Origin: a virus
Taxonomy: Duplodnaviria > Caudoviricetes
Virus record (IMG/VR): IMGVR_UViG_3300031993_000017
Strand: one strand, 5' to 3'
DNA: 64,000 bases
How positions within the stretch are numbered: the first letter of the stretch is position 1; each line of letters begins with the position of its first letter. This document shows positions 3,991-54,847 of the stretch, piece after piece. A program made the position numbers and the translations under genes. Below the pieces are notes generated by a model. The model did no database searches, was not told where the DNA came from, and saw only the letters and a list, made by a program, of their open reading frames with translations.

Positions 3991-4254
3991 TCATGACTTG
4001 TTTGCAATGTACCATACTGCGTAACTCACCGTATCCATAGTATCATAGGTGTTTACAGTAGTAGCATCTTTTACATATCCACTTCTATTGAGTGTAAGTT
4101 CTGATAAGATATAGTCACCTTTTGATAATCTGATCACATTGTAGTAATCATCACCACACTTGAAACTTACACCGGATTTTGTTGCCAATTCATTCTCAAA
4201 GAACTTATTAACTTCATTCAGGCTCTTTCTTGTAAGATCGACATAATTTTTCAT
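3991..4254 (-). CDS. hypothetical protein
   Basis: ORF downstream of ATCGTTATAT motif at ~4295. Confidence 0.55.
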   Translation of the reverse strand: MKNYVDLTRKSLNEVNKFFENELATKSGVSFKCGDDYYNVIRLSKGDYILSELTLNRSGYVKDATTVNTYDTMDTVSYAVWYIANKS

Positions 4255-4327
4255 AAACTTTGCTACTTTGAATTTTATTAGTTGTACTGTATATAACGAT
4301 TGAATTTTGAGAAATAATCAAGGTTAC

Positions 4328-4567
4328 TCAAAAATCTTCATCATATTCATCTTCTTCATCATATTCATCTAAACCAAGCCGTTCATTCACGGCATCAATG
4401 TATCTGTCACACACAGCGATCAAATTGTAGTAATCACCGCTAGTTGCCTCCTTATGCATCTGATCGATTTCTTCTCGGGTAAATTTAGCGTTCCTCATTG
4501 CCCTTGCAGTATACCCCATAATAGCAAATGCGTTTCCGTCAACGCCGATAAGTGTGTAAGCTTTCAT
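4328..4567 (-). CDS. conserved small phage protein (G.DGNAF.IMG family)
   Basis: LIGVDGNAFAIMG...SGDY motif; AAGGAGG SD. Confidence 0.7.
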   Translation of the reverse strand: MKAYTLIGVDGNAFAIMGYTARAMRNAKFTREEIDQMHKEATSGDYYNLIAVCDRYIDAVNERLGLDEYDEEDEYDEDF

Positions 4568-4868: not shown

Positions 4869-5549
4869 TCAAGAAACCTCTTCGAGTCGTCTGGATTCGA
4901 CAGCGGACTTTCCATCGTCTTTCCCTTTGTTGTACGCGTAAAGGTTGCTGTTAGTTGCTTTAACTACAGTGCTTATCTCACGCTTGCTACCCCCTCTAGT
5001 TATATCATCGAACTTATCATGTACTTCTTGAGAAGTTACAACGAGTAGTTCGTGAGCCTGTCGATCAAGAACATCATCTACTCCTCTTACGAAACCAATC
5101 TGATAAGCATAACACACACCCTTGGTTTCCTTACCCTCTTTGTAGAATTTATCATACAACTTGACAGAAAGCTTGTTTCCAGTAATGAAAAGATACTTGA
5201 ATGTTTCATTTGCGATATCTGCGTCAGTTTTGTACCCTACAAACACTACAGCCTTTCCAGAAAAGAAAACATCGCATCTGAAGTTCTTAGCTACGATCCT
5301 GGCTAGCTCGTATCTCCATTTGACATTTCCATACACATTGAGATCTGCTACATCTACATATCTCATGACGATTTCATGTTCAATAGATTCTACATCATCT
5401 AACTGACTCATGTGGATATCATATTTGGCCATAAGCTCCTGTGCTTTCATAGCAGCAGCTATGGCTTCGTTCTCGTTAGGATTGTTCTTGCTCAAATCGA
5501 ACAAGTTGTTGATTTTCTCAATGATCTTGTCTCTGTTGAAATTTTCCAT
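4869..5549 (-). CDS. DUF2786-domain protein
   Basis: KIIEKI..L..L...NPNENEA.AA..KAQELMAKY N-terminus. Confidence 0.8.
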   Translation of the reverse strand: MENFNRDKIIEKINNLFDLSKNNPNENEAIAAAMKAQELMAKYDIHMSQLDDVESIEHEIVMRYVDVADLNVYGNVKWRYELARIVAKNFRCDVFFSGKAVVFVGYKTDADIANETFKYLFITGNKLSVKLYDKFYKEGKETKGVCYAYQIGFVRGVDDVLDRQAHELLVVTSQEVHDKFDDITRGGSKREISTVVKATNSNLYAYNKGKDDGKSAVESRRLEEVS

Positions 5550-5913: not shown

Positions 5914-6588
5914 TCAATATGAAAAACTGAGTAACCATTTGACAGCTCTATCAATCTCTTTTGATATAAGGGATGGATTCTTGTAAAACTTAGCATCATT
6001 GAATGTAACTGCTTTCTCAAAATCTGACATAATATTCTCTTGACCTTGAGTCTTATCTGCTACATATATAACACCAGTAACTTCTCCAGAATGCACATTG
6101 TAATTTGTTTGATAACTAAAAGCAAGTTTCACCCTAGAATTTCTATATTTGATTACTAACCCTCTGCATAAGTTCCTAACATCTTCCTCGAATCTATCTA
6201 CCTTTGCAATAATCTTCTTCTCTTCTTCAAATTCCTTATAAGCTTGTCCTAGATTGAAGGTTATGACCATATCTAAATCTTCGGTGATATCTTCAATTGT
6301 GTTGAACCTTGTAGAAAATGTAGTGCTGTAAGTATTTGGAAGTGTCGTAGTATATGCTAGTTCATAACCTTTGTACTTTATAGTACCAAACTTAGATACA
6401 GGAAGTCCAAACAGCTTTGTGTAACGGAATGTATACTTAACTAAATTGTCAACTAATGATATTATCTCTACTTCACCAGAGCAGTTGTAACTACTTGCGG
6501 TGTGATCTAAAATCTTTTGCATTTCTTCTGTAATCTCAGAAACTGTTACAGACGTAGGATTGTGGCTAGCTAAAATGCGAATTCTCAT
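5914..6588 (-). CDS. hypothetical protein with degenerate basic N-terminal tag (MRIRILAS)
   Basis: ORF, GGAGG SD, ACCTTTTAT motif upstream. Confidence 0.65.
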   Translation of the reverse strand: MRIRILASHNPTSVTVSEITEEMQKILDHTASSYNCSGEVEIISLVDNLVKYTFRYTKLFGLPVSKFGTIKYKGYELAYTTTLPNTYSTTFSTRFNTIEDITEDLDMVITFNLGQAYKEFEEEKKIIAKVDRFEEDVRNLCRGLVIKYRNSRVKLAFSYQTNYNVHSGEVTGVIYVADKTQGQENIMSDFEKAVTFNDAKFYKNPSLISKEIDRAVKWLLSFSY

Positions 6589-6627
6589 AGGAACCTTCCT
6601 CCTTTGATGCTATAAAAGGTAAAAAGA

Positions 6628-6665
6628 AACGCATGTAGATACCAAATGAGATACCTACATGCGTT
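6628..6665. terminator. intrinsic terminator hairpin
   Basis: AACGCATGTAG...CTACATGCGTT inverted repeat with a U-rich tail on the minus strand. Confidence 0.65.
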
Positions 6666-6686
6666 GTGTTAATTGAGAATTTAGTA

Positions 6687-7418
6687 TCAGATCTTGTCAG
6701 TCAGATGTGCGTTGATGTATTCTCTTCCTACATCTTCTTTATCCCATCTCTTGACAATATGTAATCCTAAAGGACTGAATACAACTTCTACGAGTAATTC
6801 AATGAATCCTCCGACTACTGCTGTGCCGAGTGCGGTCCAAACTGGATAACTGAATCCCCAGAAGATCGGAGCAAAGATGCAATACAATCCTCCAAAGAAA
6901 AGGAAGTTATCTACAAACTGACCTACAAAAGTGGACACATAACTTCTAATGAAGAAAGCAACACCGCTGTCAGGATTCTTGACGAATATCTTACCTACAA
7001 TTGAATTCAAGATACTATTAACTACACCTGACACTACAAATGCTACAGTACTACAAAGAACAATGAACCATACAGACGCGAATACGGAATTGAATGCGGA
7101 ATAGTCCTGGCTGTTGTTAGGAATGGCTGCAACAATCCACAAGAATATTACAGAAAATAGATTACCAAGTGCAGAAAGAACATTGAGCATGATTGATGCT
7201 CTAGCACCAAAACGCTTTGTTACGGTATCCATGCATAAGAATGGACACCAGCTTAAGATAAATCCTCCTGTGAATGCTACATTGCTTATCTGGAAAATAA
7301 TTTTTCCTGCGGCTAGATTCATGAGTACTGTACTAAGTACAAATGCTACAGTTACTAGTGCAGGAATGTTCTTCAATAGCAGTTTATAGTCCGCTATAAG
7401 ACTCTTGTTTGAATTCAT
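6687..7418 (-). CDS. queuosine precursor (preQ0/preQ1) transporter, QPTR/VUT (YhhQ-like) family
   Basis: multi-TM protein; N..A.K, D...K.FG, S.VAF.VS, RS..ST.VGQ.VDN.LF motifs. Confidence 0.8.
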   Translation of the reverse strand: MNSNKSLIADYKLLLKNIPALVTVAFVLSTVLMNLAAGKIIFQISNVAFTGGFILSWCPFLCMDTVTKRFGARASIMLNVLSALGNLFSVIFLWIVAAIPNNSQDYSAFNSVFASVWFIVLCSTVAFVVSGVVNSILNSIVGKIFVKNPDSGVAFFIRSYVSTFVGQFVDNFLFFGGLYCIFAPIFWGFSYPVWTALGTAVVGGFIELLVEVVFSPLGLHIVKRWDKEDVGREYINAHLTDKI

Positions 7419-32533: not shown

Positions 32534-33970
32534 CGTTCAAATTCTACTGAAATTATAGTAAAATTCTAATAAATTTTATTTATAAGAAGTTTGCTTTCAT
32601 TGCGAAAGCCTTATTCTTAAAGGCGTAATGACTTCGCCTCTACACTGTTCCAAATGTTGTATTTGGTTCAGCTTACTTTTTCTCATTATATTGAGAGCTC
32701 CGTTGACATCTGCGTTTAGTACTTGACCATTCGATCTTTGATAGAGACCGCGATAAATTCTTTTTCCTGTGAAGCTACCTTGATGCGGGTTTTGTGGATT
32801 CCAAATTGGTATCTTGTCACTGTCGAAAAAGCTTGCCTTTGAAGTGTAACTTTCTTCTTGTTCAATGTAGTTAATACCGAATCGATTACACAAGAATTTC
32901 AATCGATTTTTGAATTTGCCGTAAGGAATCATGACGAAGTTTTGATTATTGACTTTACCTAGATTAGGATTTTCTTGAAATCCATCATTGAACCCTACTA
33001 CAATGTTTCCTATCTTATGTGTTAGGCAATAGTCAACAATGTACTTTGCAGAACAATAGACAAAATCTTGGATGCGACGATTTCGCTTTTCAGTAGTTGC
33101 AGACATTCGAGATGTATCACATTTAATCCCTTGCTTGGCTTTCACGCTTGATAGTCTGGCACGCTGTTTGTTGTACCATTGGTTTTGTGATTTTAATTTT
33201 CTACCGTCAATTATGAATGCTTCTCCAGTTGAGGTTGCACAAGTTGCAAAATTATTGATACCAAGATCGATACTCAAAGCTTTATTCAGATCAAGATCTT
33301 GAATCTCGTCATACTCTACGTCGAACAAATATCTTGCTTCAAACCACTTGCCACCTTGCCTAGGAACAATGTGAATTTGATGAACTTTCTTATCTCTAAG
33401 TTGAGGTGGAAAATGCAACTTGATTCTTGTGTCAGTTTGTTTCTTCATTAAAGGCGACATCGGAATAATCATTGTACCATCTTCCTTCATAAATGATTCC
33501 GGAAGGTGTATAGGATACAATCCATCTTTCGGCAAGTAATAGGGCATATTGACTGCATCTTTTGAATACTGCTTCTTTTGAACTAGTTTAAGCAATGCGA
33601 AAAATGAACGAAAAGCTGCATCAACGCATTTCATAGTTTGTTGAGCGATGTTAGCTCCGAGCAACTTATAATTCTCACTCGTTTTTTCAATCGGGTAGGT
33701 GGCTTCATATCGTAAGAAAGACCCTTCACTGAAGTAGTGCTGACGAATGTTGTACAGAGATTCGTTATACACATTTTTGCTTAGACGACACATTTCTTTC
33801 AACAGCATATACTCATCTTTGGATAAGTGTTTTAAGTTTTGTTTCCAAGTTACTAGCATGTTTTCACCTCCTTTCTTTTGCTGTTCATATTAAAGGTTAG
33901 GAATTACAATCAAATCGGCTGAATTGATTGTAAAATTAAATTTTAATAGAATTTCAATATAGTTTACACG
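32534..33970 (-). mobile_element. non-autonomous tnpB-only element with IS607-like ends
   Basis: imperfect AT-rich inverted termini, each bounded by a CG dinucleotide (32534-32535, 33969-33970); no transposase. Confidence 0.6.
32597..33859 (-). CDS. tnpB: TnpB RNA-guided nuclease
   Basis: SIDLGINN, EESYTSKAS, NADVNGALNI. Confidence 0.9.
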   Translation of the reverse strand: MLVTWKQNLKHLSKDEYMLLKEMCRLSKNVYNESLYNIRQHYFSEGSFLRYEATYPIEKTSENYKLLGANIAQQTMKCVDAAFRSFFALLKLVQKKQYSKDAVNMPYYLPKDGLYPIHLPESFMKEDGTMIIPMSPLMKKQTDTRIKLHFPPQLRDKKVHQIHIVPRQGGKWFEARYLFDVEYDEIQDLDLNKALSIDLGINNFATCATSTGEAFIIDGRKLKSQNQWYNKQRARLSSVKAKQGIKCDTSRMSATTEKRNRRIQDFVYCSAKYIVDYCLTHKIGNIVVGFNDGFQENPNLGKVNNQNFVMIPYGKFKNRLKFLCNRFGINYIEQEESYTSKASFFDSDKIPIWNPQNPHQGSFTGKRIYRGLYQRSNGQVLNADVNGALNIMRKSKLNQIQHLEQCRGEVITPLRIRLSQ

Positions 33971-43808: not shown

Positions 43809-45074
43809 CTAAGATAGCCTTATTCTTGCAGGGCTGGTCAAAAGCCCATTACACAGTTTGTCGAAATCGACATTCTGCTTACATTTTCTTAGAATGTTTG
43901 CGGCACCATTTACATCTGCATTGAGGATTGTGCCATTTTTAGATTGGTATAGTCCTCTTTTTATGCGTTTGCCAGAAAATGTGCCCTCATAAGGCTGTTC
44001 TGATTTATATTCTGGAAGTGCATCTCTGTCTAAGAAGCTGCTTTTAGAAGTGTAACTTTCTTCTTGTTCGATGTAATCAATCTGATACTTCCAACAGAGG
44101 AATTCAAGCTGTTGACGAAGGTCACCTAAAGGTATCTGAACAAAGTTCTGATTGTTAATCTTGCCGAGATTAGAGCACCTTTTGAAATCCGCATTATATC
44201 CTACAATGAGTGTACCAATGTTGTTCTTGATACAATAGTTGATTATATATCTTGCTGACTTCTTGATAATGTCATTGACTTGATTGTTTCGCTTTGTTGT
44301 AATATTCTGGATACGCTTTGTTGTCTTCAACTTCTGTTTCATAGAAATAGAACGGAGTCTTGCTAATTCTTTATTCCACTGATGGTTGATTGATTTGAGT
44401 TTACGACCGTCCATAATGAACGGTGTCCCAACAGTTGAAACACAGGTAGCAAGATTATCCACCCCTAAATCTATTGACAGAATGTTGTTCTTGTCAACAT
44501 ACACATCTTCCTGTTCAACTTCATACACATACTGTATCTTAAAGTAACGACCATTGTTAAAAGGCAAGATGCGAACTTCTTTGATAGTCTTATCAGCTAA
44601 TCGTTCAGGAAACGCAATCTTGATTTCCTTGACATCGGGGTGTAAAGCTCTAAAGTTCCTACTCATCGGGACATACAGGTAGCCATTCTTAACTACAAAA
44701 GCATTTGTAGACATTATAAGATTAAACATTCCACCTTTAGGTCTATAATGCGGAACATTGACATCATGGTATCTGTAATCGCTAGTTTTGCATTTCTTCA
44801 AAAGATTAAAAAATGATTTAAAACTTCTATCTACAACTTTCATAATCTGCTGTGATATTCCAGCTTGTAAAAGTCCATAGTTTTCATTTGTCTTACATTC
44901 GTGATAGTTGCTCTCATAAGTCAGAAATTGCTTTGTATTGAAGTAGTGTTGACGGATAGTGTAGAGTGCAACATTGTACAGATTATTTGAATATCTGCAC
45001 ATTTCACGAAGTAGGTCATATTGACATTTAGTTAATCCTCTGATTACATTACTCTGTACACAGTATGTAGACAT
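43809..45074 (-). CDS. tnpB: TnpB RNA-guided nuclease (intact)
   Basis: SIDLGVDN, EESYTSKSS, NADVNGAANI. Confidence 0.92.
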   Translation of the reverse strand: MSTYCVQSNVIRGLTKCQYDLLREMCRYSNNLYNVALYTIRQHYFNTKQFLTYESNYHECKTNENYGLLQAGISQQIMKVVDRSFKSFFNLLKKCKTSDYRYHDVNVPHYRPKGGMFNLIMSTNAFVVKNGYLYVPMSRNFRALHPDVKEIKIAFPERLADKTIKEVRILPFNNGRYFKIQYVYEVEQEDVYVDKNNILSIDLGVDNLATCVSTVGTPFIMDGRKLKSINHQWNKELARLRSISMKQKLKTTKRIQNITTKRNNQVNDIIKKSARYIINYCIKNNIGTLIVGYNADFKRCSNLGKINNQNFVQIPLGDLRQQLEFLCWKYQIDYIEQEESYTSKSSFLDRDALPEYKSEQPYEGTFSGKRIKRGLYQSKNGTILNADVNGAANILRKCKQNVDFDKLCNGLLTSPARIRLS

Positions 45075-51418: not shown

Positions 51419-51450
51419 AGTGGTACCTCACTTTTACATAAAATAGAAAG

Positions 51451-51525
51451 TCGGAATGACAGGATTCGAACCTGCGACCTCTTGATCCCAAATCAAGCAT
51501 TCTAGCCAAACTGAACTACATCCCG
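51451..51525 (-). tRNA. tRNA-Pro(TGG)
   Basis: cloverleaf; anticodon arm CTTGA-TTTGGGA-TCAAG; GGTTCGAATCC. Confidence 0.92.
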
Positions 51526-51667
51526 ATGATTCGTTTCGAGTTTTTTACTAGGTCAAAACGCATCCACAGAACCATACAGATTTTGTGCTTACCTTTAAGC
51601 ACCTAAAACCAGTAATCGCATTACGAAAACTAGAGACCTTCTCTAAACATGTTAGATGGGTGTTGAA

Positions 51668-51867
51668 TATCTCAGGTGAGGATTTGCACCTCACATGATT
51701 GGAGTTTTGGGATATTATTGCTCTCGATTACCTCCCTGTGTTACACCCGAAGGCTCAAGACTGGTCTTGCACTGACTCGATGATTATTTTACACGGCACA
51801 ACATCAATCCGTAACCAACCTATAAGAAGCCACACTTTAGCGTCTACCTATTCTCGCCACTGAGATA
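51668..51867 (-). ncRNA. tRNA-like RNA A (no anticodon arm, ~140-nt insert)
   Basis: TATCTCAG/CTGAGATA stem, Leu-like D-arm, T-arm GTGAGG-TGCAAAT-CCTCAC. Confidence 0.65.
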
Positions 51868-51928
51868 CAATGATCAAGACCGTTCAATTAAAGCACCTGC
51901 AAGCAGACACCACTGAAAAGCCTTGCAA

Positions 51929-52016
51929 TTGAGAGAATGGGATTCGAACCCATGCACGAGTTATCTCGTCTAGCAGATTTCAAGTCTGCACTCTTAAACC
52001 GCTTGAGTATCTCCCC
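51929..52016 (-). tRNA. tRNA-Ser(TGA)
   Basis: GCAGA-CTTGAAA-TCTGC, long variable arm; 1:72 mismatch. Confidence 0.85.
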
Positions 52017-52023
52017 ATGTCCT

Positions 52024-52776
52024 TCAATCGTTACAATTTTCATACAATTCTTCTAATCGATTATAAGAATAAGATGACCTAACATACTCAAATATTTCCT
52101 TTAAATCTGATTCTGTTAGATTCACTATCTTTCTATCTTTAACAGACTTTAACTTAGCATATTTACGTCCTGTCATGTATCCAGATATTTCTACAATTGT
52201 TCCATCTTCTAGTTCAAAATCTGGATAATATTTACATATTTCCCCATTGTATTCATATTCATAGTAACGTATACACCTCTTAAATGATACACCATGATCT
52301 ATGTTGTATATTACATATGCAAGTTCATATGTAGAATCACAGAAGTAACCTTTGTACCAACCTTTTTTGCCTCTACCTGACCTGGTTCTTAATCCTCCAC
52401 AATTAGTAGATAAACGCATACTTTTTGAAATCTTACATTTTCTGTTAGCTTCAATTTCATAAGTTGAACCTCGTCCAGTTGACCAACTATGACCATTCAA
52501 TTTAATATAATCATGAGAAGATTTGCGCATACTTTCGGACATTCGCATTACTCTATCATCTGTTTCCTTTGTAAGACCTTTATTCCACGGACTTCTGCCA
52601 CTGTTTTGATGTCTCGAAAATTCAGGATTTGAAAACGGGCTCTTTATAGGAATTCTATTAGGATTCACTCTACATCTGATTTCATGTTGTTTTAAAGAGT
52701 TTATGTTTTTACATTTTTTCTTGCAATACGAACAGTACAAATCATCTCTATCTTCTAAATAATGATTGTTAGACAT
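52024..52776 (-). CDS. free-standing homing-endonuclease-like protein (Zn finger, NUMOD-like, PD-(D/E)XK-like)
   Basis: C..C.K......L.QH..RC, PWNKGLTKETD, DS.YE...Y.PDF...VEI(S)GY. Confidence 0.7.
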   Translation of the reverse strand: MSNNHYLEDRDDLYCSYCKKKCKNINSLKQHEIRCRVNPNRIPIKSPFSNPEFSRHQNSGRSPWNKGLTKETDDRVMRMSESMRKSSHDYIKLNGHSWSTGRGSTYEIEANRKCKISKSMRLSTNCGGLRTRSGRGKKGWYKGYFCDSTYELAYVIYNIDHGVSFKRCIRYYEYEYNGEICKYYPDFELEDGTIVEISGYMTGRKYAKLKSVKDRKIVNLTESDLKEIFEYVRSSYSYNRLEELYENCND

Positions 52777-52871
52777 CTTAACTATCTCCTTAACGATAAA
52801 TGATGAAATGAGCTTGAAGTTAATGCTTCATTATTTCGAAGGTTAGCTATTCTATCTCTACCCCATTTCAA

Positions 52872-52948
52872 CAGACCAGAGGTTGGATTCGAACTGACGA
52901 TGAAACGCTGTCAGCTATGGCTCGTTATGACCACTTCGATATCTCTCC
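52872..52948 (-). pseudogene. degenerate tRNA (Ser-like 5' end)
   Basis: GGAGAGATATCGAAGTGG...GTTCGAATC but broken anticodon, T and acceptor stems. Confidence 0.55.
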
Positions 52949-52952
52949 ATAA

Positions 52953-53053
52953 TCCAAGCATAGAATAGAGTTTATAGTTGTTTTGTTGCTGAGGGAAACA
53001 ACAGGTTTGAGAGTGTTGCAGGATAAACTTTAGAGGGCTATCCTATGCTTGGA
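52953..53053 (-). ncRNA. unknown structured RNA F
   Basis: 16-bp terminal stem with a G-U pair on the minus strand only; inner stems; wedged between tRNA genes. Confidence 0.5.
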
Positions 53054-53056
53054 AAA

Positions 53057-53134
53057 CTGGACTGGTTGGATTCGAACCAACGAAAAAATGCAGGCGTCAA
53101 AGACCCGTGACTTAAACCACTTGTCGACAGTCCA
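53057..53134 (-). tRNA. tRNA-Gln(TTG)
   Basis: CGGGT-CTTTGAC-GCCTG; T1-A72. Confidence 0.85.
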
Positions 53135-53161
53135 ATGTATTGACTACTAGATCATAGAAGG

Positions 53162-53335
53162 TTATTCAGATTCTTCGTCCTTTTCGCCGACAGATACACG
53201 ATACTCAATCTGTGCTCCGCAGTTTGCACAATGGCATACATGAACGATTCCGTCTCCTTCATACCCAAAATCACTGAAACTGAAATCAGCGTCCCAAACT
53301 ACTCCTTTGGTACAACAGTGAAAACATTCAAACAT
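53162..53335 (-). CDS. small Zn-ribbon protein (MFECFHC...CANCGA)
   Basis: 57 aa, two CxxC motifs, SD AAGGG. Confidence 0.6.
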   Translation of the reverse strand: MFECFHCCTKGVVWDADFSFSDFGYEGDGIVHVCHCANCGAQIEYRVSVGEKDEESE

Positions 53336-53572
53336 AATCGTAACACCCTTTCAATGAAACTGAAAACTTTTAAAACAAATGCATCATTCAGAAGTTAGGT
53401 CTATAAAAATTAGGTATTATATGGTAGTTCCTAGTTTCAACTACCAAGCCACCAATTCTTGTTAGGAGCAAAGAATCTGAGTTTCGGTACGAGTCCTACC
53501 GGACTTTGTATGAGGTTGCTACTCAATCATGCGAGCTGTTGAAATCTTAATTTTCAATATCCAATTCATCTA

Positions 53573-53740
53573 CTAAAGAAAATCCCCCCAACAACTGCAT
53601 CCGTATTTGATAGCGTTTTTGATAATATCAGAATCTGGCATCTCATCCACCGCTTTATATAACGACGGAACTGCGACTTTTATAGCCATTTTTGCAGCAT
53701 CAAGATCAATTTTCACAGTTAAGATTTTTTCATTTGCCAT
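53573..53740 (-). CDS. small hypothetical protein (MANEKILTVK...)
   Basis: AAGGTG SD; possible frameshift at a G6 run near the end. Confidence 0.45.
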   Translation of the reverse strand: MANEKILTVKIDLDAAKMAIKVAVPSLYKAVDEMPDSDIIKNAIKYGCSCWGDFL

Positions 53741-53903
53741 AACTATTCACCTTATTCACAAGTATCCAAAACAACCACCTGACCGGATTGCGTATGAATT
53801 GTTCGGATTCTTCGGCATGTAAGTCAGATGGTTGATAGATAGGATCAACCTGCACACTGGTTGTTCTTCATAGAATCAACACGCGTCATGGATTGATCAC
53901 AAG

Positions 53904-53977
53904 TGGAACATGTAGGATTCGAACCTACAACCGCTCGGTTATGAGCCGAGAACTCTAACCAGTTGAGTTAATGTTCC
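53904..53977 (-). tRNA. tRNA-Ile2 (CAT; lysidine type) rather than Met
   Basis: CTCGG-CTCATAA-CCGAG; body resembles Firmicute tRNA-Ile(CAU). Confidence 0.8.
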
Positions 53978-53985
53978 TTGAAAGA

Positions 53986-54094
53986 ATGGGTGTCCGAATC
54001 TTTGCAGGTGTCTCCCGTAGGAGCATAGGACTATCCTGTTCACGCATCCCTAAGTTTTCGGAAACGGGTATCACTTACGTTTTAGCCCACCCAT
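53986..54094 (-). ncRNA. unknown structured RNA D
   Basis: ATGGGTG/CACCCAT closing stem, GC-rich internal hairpins. Confidence 0.4.
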
Positions 54095-54102
54095 CCAGTA
54101 AA

Positions 54103-54241
54103 AGATGATTGCAGAATCGAACTGCCTTCGCTCCACGCTTCAATACAAAAGGTTACGAATCTCTTGTATTTCTATGGTCTCGAACCACTTTCAACCCTTC
54201 ACCCGTCGGTACGTCAGGTCCCTCCCACTAAGAAATCATCT
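54103..54241 (-). ncRNA. RNA C with tRNA-like acceptor/T-arm
   Basis: AGATGATT/AATCATCT stem stacked on GCAG-TTCGATT-CTGC. Confidence 0.55.
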
Positions 54242-54250
54242 AAGTCAATT

Positions 54251-54344
54251 TTGTGCAATGGCAGTTTCTACAGCCCCACGCTAACTGGACTACTCATTCA
54301 CGGCTGAGTAATCTATGCCGACCCGATTTGCCCTCGGAGCACAA
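54251..54344 (-). ncRNA. unknown structured RNA E
   Basis: TTGTGC/GCACAA closing stem with internal hairpins. Confidence 0.4.
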
Positions 54345-54347
54345 GCA

Positions 54348-54476
54348 TGATTCAATGGTAAGGATTTGCACCCTACAGAATGAGTCCTATTTAGGCATCA
54401 GTTTCAGCCACGGCTATCTCCATACTCATTCGTCTCGCCACCCGCCTATGTTTACCTTTTCCACCACATTGAATCA
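54348..54476 (-). ncRNA. tRNA-like RNA B (no anticodon arm)
   Basis: 10-bp TGATTCAATG/CATTGAATCA stem, Leu-like D-arm, T-arm GTAGGG-TGCAAAT-CCTTAC. Confidence 0.65.
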
Positions 54477-54478
54477 CA

Positions 54479-54562
54479 TGCACCTAAACGGATTCGAACC
54501 GTCACGAGAATATTCTCAATGGATTTTAAGTCCATCGTGTATTCCAATTCCACCATAGGTGC
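54479..54562 (-). tRNA. tRNA-Leu(TAA)
   Basis: ATGGA-CTTAAAA-TCCAT, variable arm. Confidence 0.92.
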
Positions 54563-54669
54563 TTTTGTGTGAGACTCACCCAACCCATATCTCACCTGGA
54601 GTTGCTCCCCATGGGTCTCCACCAATGCGCAACTCTATCCACCAAACATCTAGGAGGTATCTAAATGTA

Positions 54670-54740
54670 CTGGACTAGCTGGATTCGAACCAGCGTTGAC
54701 GGAATCAAAATCCGTTGACTAACCTCTTGTCGATAGTCCA
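54670..54740 (-). tRNA. tRNA-Gln(TTG)
   Basis: ACGGA-TTTTGAT-TCCGT. Confidence 0.9.
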
Positions 54741-54847
54741 ATGATTCTGTTTCAGCTATCTGCCCTACCTAGTTCAACAGAGATGCCTAGAATTCTCTAA
54801 ACACCTCTGCCGAACTCTAAAGAGGTATCTTATAGGCAGGAGTAATC

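Follow-up and report, generated by a model that had tools for sequence, protein, structure and literature searches.

A large family of tRNA-Leu-like phage RNAs with variable inserts in place of the anticodon arm

Known tRNA-like RNAs and the phage locus

The closest described counterparts of the RNAs treated here are encoded among the tRNA genes of phages T5 and T4. T5 RNA1 (AY543070, 30501-30644) lies in a phage tRNA cluster, is annotated as a 'tRNA-like stable RNA with unknown functions' with no tRNA annotated in its place, and is grouped with T5 RNA2 and RNA3; it contains a tRNA-Leu-like D arm (GCCGGAAUUGGUAGACGG) together with a T arm. The T4 species 1 and species 2 RNAs (rnaC and rnaD) are annotated small stable RNAs adjoining tRNA genes, and in rnaC the 3' end is an acceptor-like strand that comes after a T arm, CCGGG-UUCGAAU-CCCGG. 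Two further RNAs, RNA A and RNA B, are described here from the IMG/VR virus record IMGVR_UViG_3300031993_000017 (Duplodnaviria; Caudoviricetes), of which a stretch of 64,000 nucleotides, hereafter the window, was analysed. Both are encoded on the minus strand within a phage tRNA cluster and possess a tRNA-like acceptor/T end, features that they share with the stable RNAs of T4 and T5. They are real, selected RNA genes of a large phage family, and the best reading of their sequences is that of non-decoding RNAs derived from a class II tRNA-Leu that has lost its anticodon arm. The family as a whole, carried by phages of Gram-positive bacteria, adds a new and very large type to the tRNA-like stable RNAs long known from phages.

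Other described RNAs share parts of this architecture. YrlA RNAs are likewise non-decoding and combine tRNA-like D and T arms with an acceptor-like stem, and YrlA of Mycobacterium smegmatis is cut by RNase P and receives CCA (PMC4201824). The ends of YrlA, however, form a Ro-binding helix and its acceptor-like stem is a closed hairpin, whereas the RNAs of the present family end at the acceptor stem; with this difference in topology and no YrlA match, the Y-RNA relationship put forward in a preliminary description of the locus is not supported. No Ro60/TROVE domain was found among the 20 largest open reading frames (ORFs) scanned in the window, itself only part of a genome. The tRNA-like domain of tmRNA also presents an acceptor/T-arm stack with a large insert between its halves, but the family differs in having a full D arm and a 3:70 pair that is mostly Watson-Crick, with no tmRNA called by ARAGORN and no tag reading frame identified. 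In the engineered tRNA scaffold, a foreign RNA replaces the anticodon arm, and the resulting chimera is processed by tRNA enzymes and spared by cellular nucleases; the scaffold is a laboratory design, of which the family is a putative natural counterpart.

Full-text literature searches by concept and by conserved sequence words returned no description of the family, and the word tRNA occurs nowhere in the text of a paper re-annotating the Bacillus phage SPP1, which encodes a member (see below). A catalogue of 10,006 viral candidate RNAs may include the family, its text permitting no match. The tRNA mimics of a 2026 preprint (skipping-rope, DUF2693-FD and salivarius-1), presumed to be present in the Rfam library, gave no match in the Rfam searches.

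The family and its covariance model

A 20-nt word of the T arm, GTRRGGTGCAAATCCTYACC, is common to RNA A and RNA B and matches at least 119 IMG/VR stretches, along with 115 stretches of species-representative bacterial genomes. At 112 of 124 occurrences of the word, the 7 nt located 3' of the T arm pair with an upstream 7-mer, which is followed by TG and a near-invariant GCGGAATAGGTAGACGC; this acceptor pairing served as the criterion for extracting family members. A covariance model, R1, was built from the alignment of 51 members of at most 140 nt each, with RNA B among the training sequences and RNA A outside them. Searched with R1 (cmsearch), the window yields RNA B (64.1 bits, E ~2e-14) and RNA A (61.3 bits, E ~1e-13) alone, each across the full model length (positions 1-114), and the next match reaches 12 bits; family members score 47-85 bits.

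The same model places the T5 and T4 RNAs at some distance. In T5, R1 gives RNA1 31.3 bits (E ~1e-6 in 13 kb) and the true tRNA-Leu 20.5 bits, and RNA1, with a score far below those of family members, may be a distant relative of the family, from which it differs in its Gram-negative host, its canonical UUCAACU T loop and its 5-bp T stem. The T4 RNAs lack a tRNA-Leu D arm and have a canonical T loop, and no R1 match was found in the T4 locus at E<=1.

Structure of RNA A and RNA B

RNA A occupies positions 51668-51866 on the minus strand and comprises 199 nt, including a discriminator A at 51668. Its acceptor stem is formed by the 5' strand AUCUCAG (51860-51866) and CUGAGAU (51669-51675), as supported by sequence, fold and R1, and a U at position -1 (51867) pairs with the discriminator to give a stem of 8 bp. 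U8 and G9 (51859-51858) precede a tRNA-Leu-type D arm, GCG / AGAAUAGGUAGA / CGC (51840-51857), which is recognized in the sequence and by R1 and is one A longer than the family consensus. A 145-nt insert (51695-51839), kept in four IMG/VR contigs, takes the place of the anticodon and variable arms and ends in A47 U48, after which comes the T arm GUGAGG-UGCAAAU-CCUCAC (51676-51694; sequence and R1), bearing a 6-bp stem and G55.

RNA B occupies positions 54350-54473 on the same strand and comprises 124 nt, including a discriminator U at 54350. Its acceptor strand UUCAAUG (54467-54473) pairs with CAUUGAA (54351-54357) in both sequence and fold, and three more flanking pairs lengthen the stem to 10 bp (54348-54476). 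The D arm, GUG / GAAAAGGUAAA / CAU (54448-54464), identified from the sequence and the family alignment, follows U8 G9 and has a stem that is altered relative to the GCG/CGC consensus with pairing retained. In the 71-nt insert (54377-54447), unconstrained folding forms an 8-bp helix, GAAUGAGU/ACUCAUUC, that abuts U48, and the T arm is GUAGGG-UGCAAAU-CCUUAC (54358-54376; sequence and R1). RNA B had been placed 2 nt after tRNA-Leu; counted with a 7-bp stem, it begins 5 nt after tRNA-Leu(UAA).

Both RNAs thus present the 7-bp acceptor, U8 and D arm with G18 G19 of a canonical tRNA, and T arms with the canonical G53:C61, U54, C56 and A58, while missing the 5-bp/7-nt anticodon arm, U55 and the 12-bp acceptor/T stack. 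When each is folded without constraints, its terminal stem and T hairpin both form, and the exact sequence GGTGCAAATCC occurs at two sites in the 64 kb, namely RNA A and RNA B. The preliminary description was sound in the tRNA-like features that it recorded (TG, a Leu-type D arm, a 6-bp T stem and the loop TGCAAAT) and in the missing anticodon stem-loop. ARAGORN, run with or without introns, calls neither a tRNA nor a tmRNA at either RNA, and Rfam 15 (4227 models, at gathering thresholds and at E<=10) has no match there, RF00005 included; the check that it had proposed has therefore disclosed no known Rfam family and no intron-containing tRNA at these positions. The pairs of its 8- and 10-bp acceptor stems exist, but the selected stem in relatives is of 7 bp; likewise, the GTGGC noted after the D arm is present in both RNAs and lies outside the consensus of the 51 aligned relatives.

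Covariation and the conserved core

Evidence that these RNAs are selected comes from comparison among family members. In the 51-member alignment, changes on both sides are seen in all seven acceptor pairs and in two of the three D pairs, and 97.8% of cells are paired, as compared to 37-45% when the 3' partner is slid. A second alignment of 48 cmsearch hits, which is fitted to R1 and includes copies not found through the T-arm word, shows covariation in four of six T pairs, including the outermost sixth pair (G:C to A:U), and none of 500 shuffles reaches the covariation observed. Across both alignments, the paired fraction of cells is 96-98%, as compared to ~40% with the partner slid. Beyond 7 bp, pairing exceeds chance only mildly, with at least one extra pair in 55 of 98 members, and the longer stems of RNA A (8 bp) and RNA B (10 bp) are thus local extensions. 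The covariance model and phage-genome search recommended at the outset have in this way yielded further members with covarying stems, and the suggestion of a maintained family rather than decay is upheld by hundreds of relatives with compensatory changes in all three stems.

These findings leave very little room for broken tRNA-Leu genes, whether as pseudogenes or as intron-bearing precursors that are spliced to a decoding tRNA. A derivation from tRNA-Leu, the position of RNA B beside tRNA-Leu(UAA), and the occurrence of other phage tRNAs with inserts in the anticodon loop (in contig L041) would all be expected of such genes. Covariation in all stems over hundreds of copies nevertheless rules out decay, ARAGORN with introns calls just 1 of 99 members, Rfam searches give no Intron_gpI match, flanking anticodon stem halves are absent, and the 80-nt member L015 is too short to have held an anticodon arm. 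Decay and splicing are excluded by the covariation, the ARAGORN result and this shortest member, making this the least probable of the explanations considered.

The conserved positions of the family are those of the tRNA tertiary core, namely U8, A14, A15, G18 G19, U48, G53:C61, U54, C56 and A58. U48 is found in 48 of 48 members, and A14 and A15 are invariant in the 51 aligned relatives. As judged from these positions, the RNAs should fold into a tRNA elbow with an acceptor/T stack, in which the A15:U48 Levitt pair, G19:C56 and U54:A58 can form. The departures from tRNA are equally conserved: the T loop is UGCAAAU in 44 of 48 members, G55 is present in 44 of 48, and the 6-bp T stem gives an acceptor/T stack of 7+6 = 13 bp. 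By contrast with the nearly invariant D-loop, T-loop and T-stem sequences, the acceptor stem and insert vary freely. Pair 3:70 is Watson-Crick in most members, being G:U in 4 of 51 and C:G in both RNA A and RNA B.

Derivation from tRNA-Leu and maturation

The tRNA-Leu character of the frame is apparent in the 7-bp acceptor, U8, the 3-bp D stem with loop AAUxGGUAGA, the possible A15:U48, G19:C56 and U54:A58 contacts, and a hairpin that abuts U48 in the manner of the long variable arm. Between this hairpin and the T stem there usually remain two nt, A47 U48, as with a class II variable arm. The D arm of the family differs by one base from that of Escherichia coli tRNA-Leu, and R1 weakly matches true phage tRNA-Leu(UAA) genes (21-43 bits). 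Unlike bacterial and phage tRNA-Leu, the family has no anticodon arm, carries G55, a 6-bp T stem and a variable discriminator, and frequently begins with U1:A72. In the shortest member, L015, the D and T arms are separated by only six nt and a single 8-bp hairpin, so that the anticodon arm is truly absent.

A frame of this type raises the question of leucine charging, in which leucyl-tRNA synthetase (LeuRS) would aminoacylate a non-decoding mimic and thereby be sequestered, or would supply leucine to a non-ribosomal acceptor. E. coli LeuRS ignores the anticodon and variable arm, and a tRNA-Leu without both is still charged given A73 and the D/T-loop contacts (PMC9976931). The identity elements of tRNA-Leu include A15:U48, G18 G19 and A20a, and both A73 and the G18:U55 contact are required for charging (PMC9976931). 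The family retains A14, A15:U48 and G18 G19, but the required U55 is replaced by G55 in 44 of 48 members and no more than 49% have A as discriminator (A 80, U 56, G 15, C 13), RNA B having U73; the 13-bp acceptor/T stack is a further departure. Because of G55 and a discriminator that is not fixed, charging by LeuRS is unlikely.

Bacterial RNase P favours U at position -1, and B. subtilis RNase Z acts on precursors that lack CCA. Of the family members, 49% have U at -1 and 54% have it at position 74, where the background is 29%, CCA is encoded in 2 of 164 members, and the spacers to neighbouring tRNAs are a few nt in length. These signals fit maturation by tRNA enzymes.

Distribution and genomic context

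Members of the family are encoded by several well-studied phages, in each case unannotated. The member of Leuconostoc phage LN34 (79.7 bits, 97 nt) follows an HNH gene near the end of the linear record, that of Enterococcus phage EFDG1 (67.6 bits, 205 nt) lies within a tRNA cluster, that of Listeria phage P100 (46.1 bits) adjoins tRNA-Asn, and that of Bacillus phage SPP1 (NC_004166; 75.5 bits) occupies 6647-6756 on the plus strand between genes 9 and 11. The SPP1 member overlaps a minus-strand ORF, 'gene 10' (6525-6734), which the record itself flags as conflicting with its own translation and which is probably not a gene, a matter of some relevance to annotation. The named hosts and most of the genome-contig matches confirmed by R1 belong to Bacillota, namely Weissella, Leuconostoc, Lactobacillaceae, Lachnospiraceae, Oscillospiraceae, Megasphaera and Bacillaceae, with a few confirmed matches in metagenome-assembled genomes of other phyla. 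Several matches of the T-arm word in Acidobacteria, Ktedonobacter and Methanobrevibacter were not confirmed by R1. The tRNA-Leu-specific frame and a very large family centred on phages of Bacillota are what the preliminary description had missed.

In 229 non-redundant contexts, a tRNA is located within 1.5 kb in 37%. In at least 66 of the 229 (at least 29%), in small phages, the RNA shares its strand with a late-gene regulator (phrog_36 or phrog_248) on one side and HNH/terminase genes on the other; the SPP1 member sits inside the late operon, and 28-kb lytic Leuconostoc phages keep a family RNA with no annotated tRNA genes nearby. Up to 3-4 copies with different inserts are found per contig. 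The recurrent position ahead of HNH/terminase genes, together with the SPP1 case, lends some appeal to a role as cis-acting punctuation, in which the tRNA shape would merely direct RNase P and RNase Z cuts that separate or stabilize flanking transcripts, for instance where the late packaging operon begins. For such a role, however, any tRNA-like hairpin would do, leaving the invariant Leu-type elbow, G55 and conserved inserts unexplained, and both copies in the window lie among tRNAs rather than adjoining mRNAs, making punctuation an improbable account of the family.

Other observations concern the surroundings of individual members. In P100 (NC_007610, 119-129 kb) and A511 (NC_009811, 21-31 kb), a family member lies in the tRNA cluster, after which come genes annotated as encoding an RNA-binding protein, an HD phosphohydrolase and an RtcB-type 'tRNA splicing ligase'. 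The homologue of this RNA-binding protein in the related phage CKA15 was likened to Ro60 in a 2025 paper, which also reported hugely expressed non-coding regions of CKA15 that, as estimated from A511 coordinates, are located close by. The hyper-expressed region of CKA15 was considered as evidence for expression of the family and set aside, its position as estimated from A511 coordinates being between gp59 and tRNA-Pro and not at the member near tRNA-Asn. On a further contig, an int-alpA RNA motif (RF02996, 46 bits; L010:3402-3472, minus strand) lies ~100 nt downstream of a family member, and several members with the acceptor stem UGAGCGG in common have a similar GC-rich trailer after them.

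The inserts and the function they suggest

Family RNAs range from 80 to 377 nt (median 130) and their inserts from ~25 to 300 nt. An all-against-all blastn comparison of the inserts of 165 unique members separates them into 133 clusters, 115 of which are singletons. Conservation can be seen within this diversity in the insert of RNA A, for which an exact 21-mer search found four contigs beyond the known relative L043. The contigs aligned with RNA A were L043, L255, L256 and L258, L257 having scored the same as L043 and been left out, and across these four the whole insert aligns, with a mean column identity of 88% over the whole RNA. Read from the alignment, the insert hairpins stay paired through changes on both sides, such as those of ACGG/CCGU to AUGG/CCAU and of CAAGA/UCUUG to GAUAAC/GUUAUC, and the contigs differ in acceptor stem, T stem and even T loop (UGCAAGU, UUCAAAU); RNAalifold on the five sequences of this type was unreliable, the T arm being broken in its output. 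The insert of RNA A, at least, is not junk.

The site between the D and T arms is not the only one that is used. In some members (for example L061, L097 and L105), an insert of 50-90 nt is located in the D loop between G18 and G19 (GGAAUAG-[insert]-GUAGACGC), and some inserts, such as those of L006 and L097, contain extra canonical T-arm hairpins. On L041, two tRNAs at 4216-4366 and 5279-5402 of the minus strand (RF00005, 50-54 bits), fully canonical in acceptor, D arm, anticodon stem and T arm, bear anticodon-loop inserts of 81 and 52 nt, too short for group I introns, and may represent a related way to load a domain onto a tRNA frame. No antisense target of the RNA A or RNA B insert was found above chance within the window.

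The reading preferred here, at a probability of roughly 0.55, is that of a tRNA-Leu-derived chassis, processed by tRNA enzymes, that presents a variable working RNA domain. The RNA would be transcribed within the tRNA cluster, cut at its 5' end by RNase P and at its 3' end by RNase Z, and probably then supplied with CCA. Its tRNA frame would serve as a nuclease-resistant chassis on which a variable folded domain is shown at the anticodon/variable-arm position, while translation would be closed to the RNA by G55, the 13-bp stack and the missing anticodon. The work itself would then fall to the insert, which during infection would probably bind a protein or another RNA.

The alternative that the elbow itself is the active part, acting as a decoy or sponge that soaks up a host tRNA-binding factor by means of the tRNA-Leu elbow and acceptor/T stack, with the insert as filler, is possible and distinctly less likely than a chassis with a working domain. 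Candidate targets would include RNase P, a modification enzyme, and a nuclease or nucleotidyltransferase of a defence system. The near invariance of the D and T loops and T stem across very different phages, alongside an acceptor and insert free to vary, is what a decoy would explain, and the extra canonical T-arm hairpins of L006 and L097 and the retention of the RNA by small lytic dairy phages are also in keeping with it. A filler, on the other hand, would not be expected to be conserved as the RNA A insert is, nor to come in 133 types, and it would not readily account for a phage with several paralogues whose inserts differ; a decoy of anticodon nucleases, moreover, would need an anticodon loop. 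Inserts that are conserved yet exchangeable favour the cargo idea over a plain decoy.

A more specific form of the cargo idea is modular RNA display, in which the Leu-tRNA chassis would offer two ports, one at the anticodon/variable arm and the other in the D loop at G18/G19, for domains that are swapped among phages, each of them binding and neutralizing its own host protein, such as a defence factor. This is put forward as a tentative proposal of rather low probability.

Several points weigh against a chassis with a working domain. The acceptor paired fraction is partly so by construction, as pairing was used in extracting members, and the folding energies give weak z-scores for RNA A (-1.3) and RNA B (-1.2), so that the case rests on comparative data and not on energy. 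The insert of RNA B has no relative among the 165 unique members, and selection on it is not supported. Rfam 15, searched at gathering thresholds and at E<=10 with the region and 29 related loci, finds only tRNAs and the one int-alpA motif downstream of a member, with no insert matched. Finally, the literature searched holds no report of a transcript, end-mapping or binding for any member.

The tRNA cluster and its surroundings

The window is part of a large phage with its genes on the minus strand and a GC content of ~36%, and its ORF products include tail-sheath-like, CHAP/LysM lysin, HNH and TnpB proteins. A megablast search of the region against 50,697 phage records returned tRNA-sized matches alone and no close relative of the phage. 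The cluster that holds RNA A and RNA B (51450-54741, minus strand) contains tRNAs for Gln, Leu(UAA), Met, Gln, Ser and Pro, on which ARAGORN and Rfam agree, and none of the six encodes CCA. The second tRNA-Gln(UUG) (53056-53135, minus strand) is, at 80 nt, long for a tRNA-Gln and scores 49 bits, below the first copy. A scan of the minus strand of the cluster for promoters and terminators gave nothing exceeding shuffles.

Small ORFs and an endonuclease-like ORF are interspersed among these tRNAs. The latter (52024-52776, minus strand) encodes 250 amino acids between tRNA-Ser and the next RNA units, with an N-terminal zinc finger and weak matches to endonuclease PHROGs, and is probably a homing endonuclease, comparable to SegB, which is encoded in the tRNA region of T4. 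The interval from RNA B to tRNA-Met (53986-54344, minus strand) is packed with three further closed-stem non-coding units with folding z-scores of -1.9, -1.0 and -0.8 and no R1 match. In one of these (54103-54241, minus strand), which lacks a D arm, a canonical T arm, GCAG-UUCGAUU-CUGC, comes directly after the 8-bp terminal stem, and there is also an inner hairpin, UGG-UUCGAGA-CCA. Elsewhere in the phage, two TnpB-like ORFs (43809-45074 and 32597-33859, minus strand) contain OrfB_IS605 and Cas12f-like TNB domains. The DNA fetched around relatives of the DUF932 protein encoded nearby (L120-L122) gave no tRNA call, and no family member was found in it by R1.

Significance

The 'stable RNAs of unknown function' of T4 and T5 have long been known, and one kind of such RNA now proves to be a very large and sharply defined family that is unannotated even in the records of well-studied phages, including SPP1, P100, EFDG1 and the dairy Leuconostoc phages. 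With SPP1 in B. subtilis, a genetically tractable model is at hand in which the function of the family is directly testable. If the inserts are working modules, nature would have in this family its own version of the engineered tRNA scaffold, and phages a class of RNA effectors that is new; if modular display is true, phages of Bacillota would gain from it a fast-evolving RNA repertoire for counter-defence or takeover of the host.

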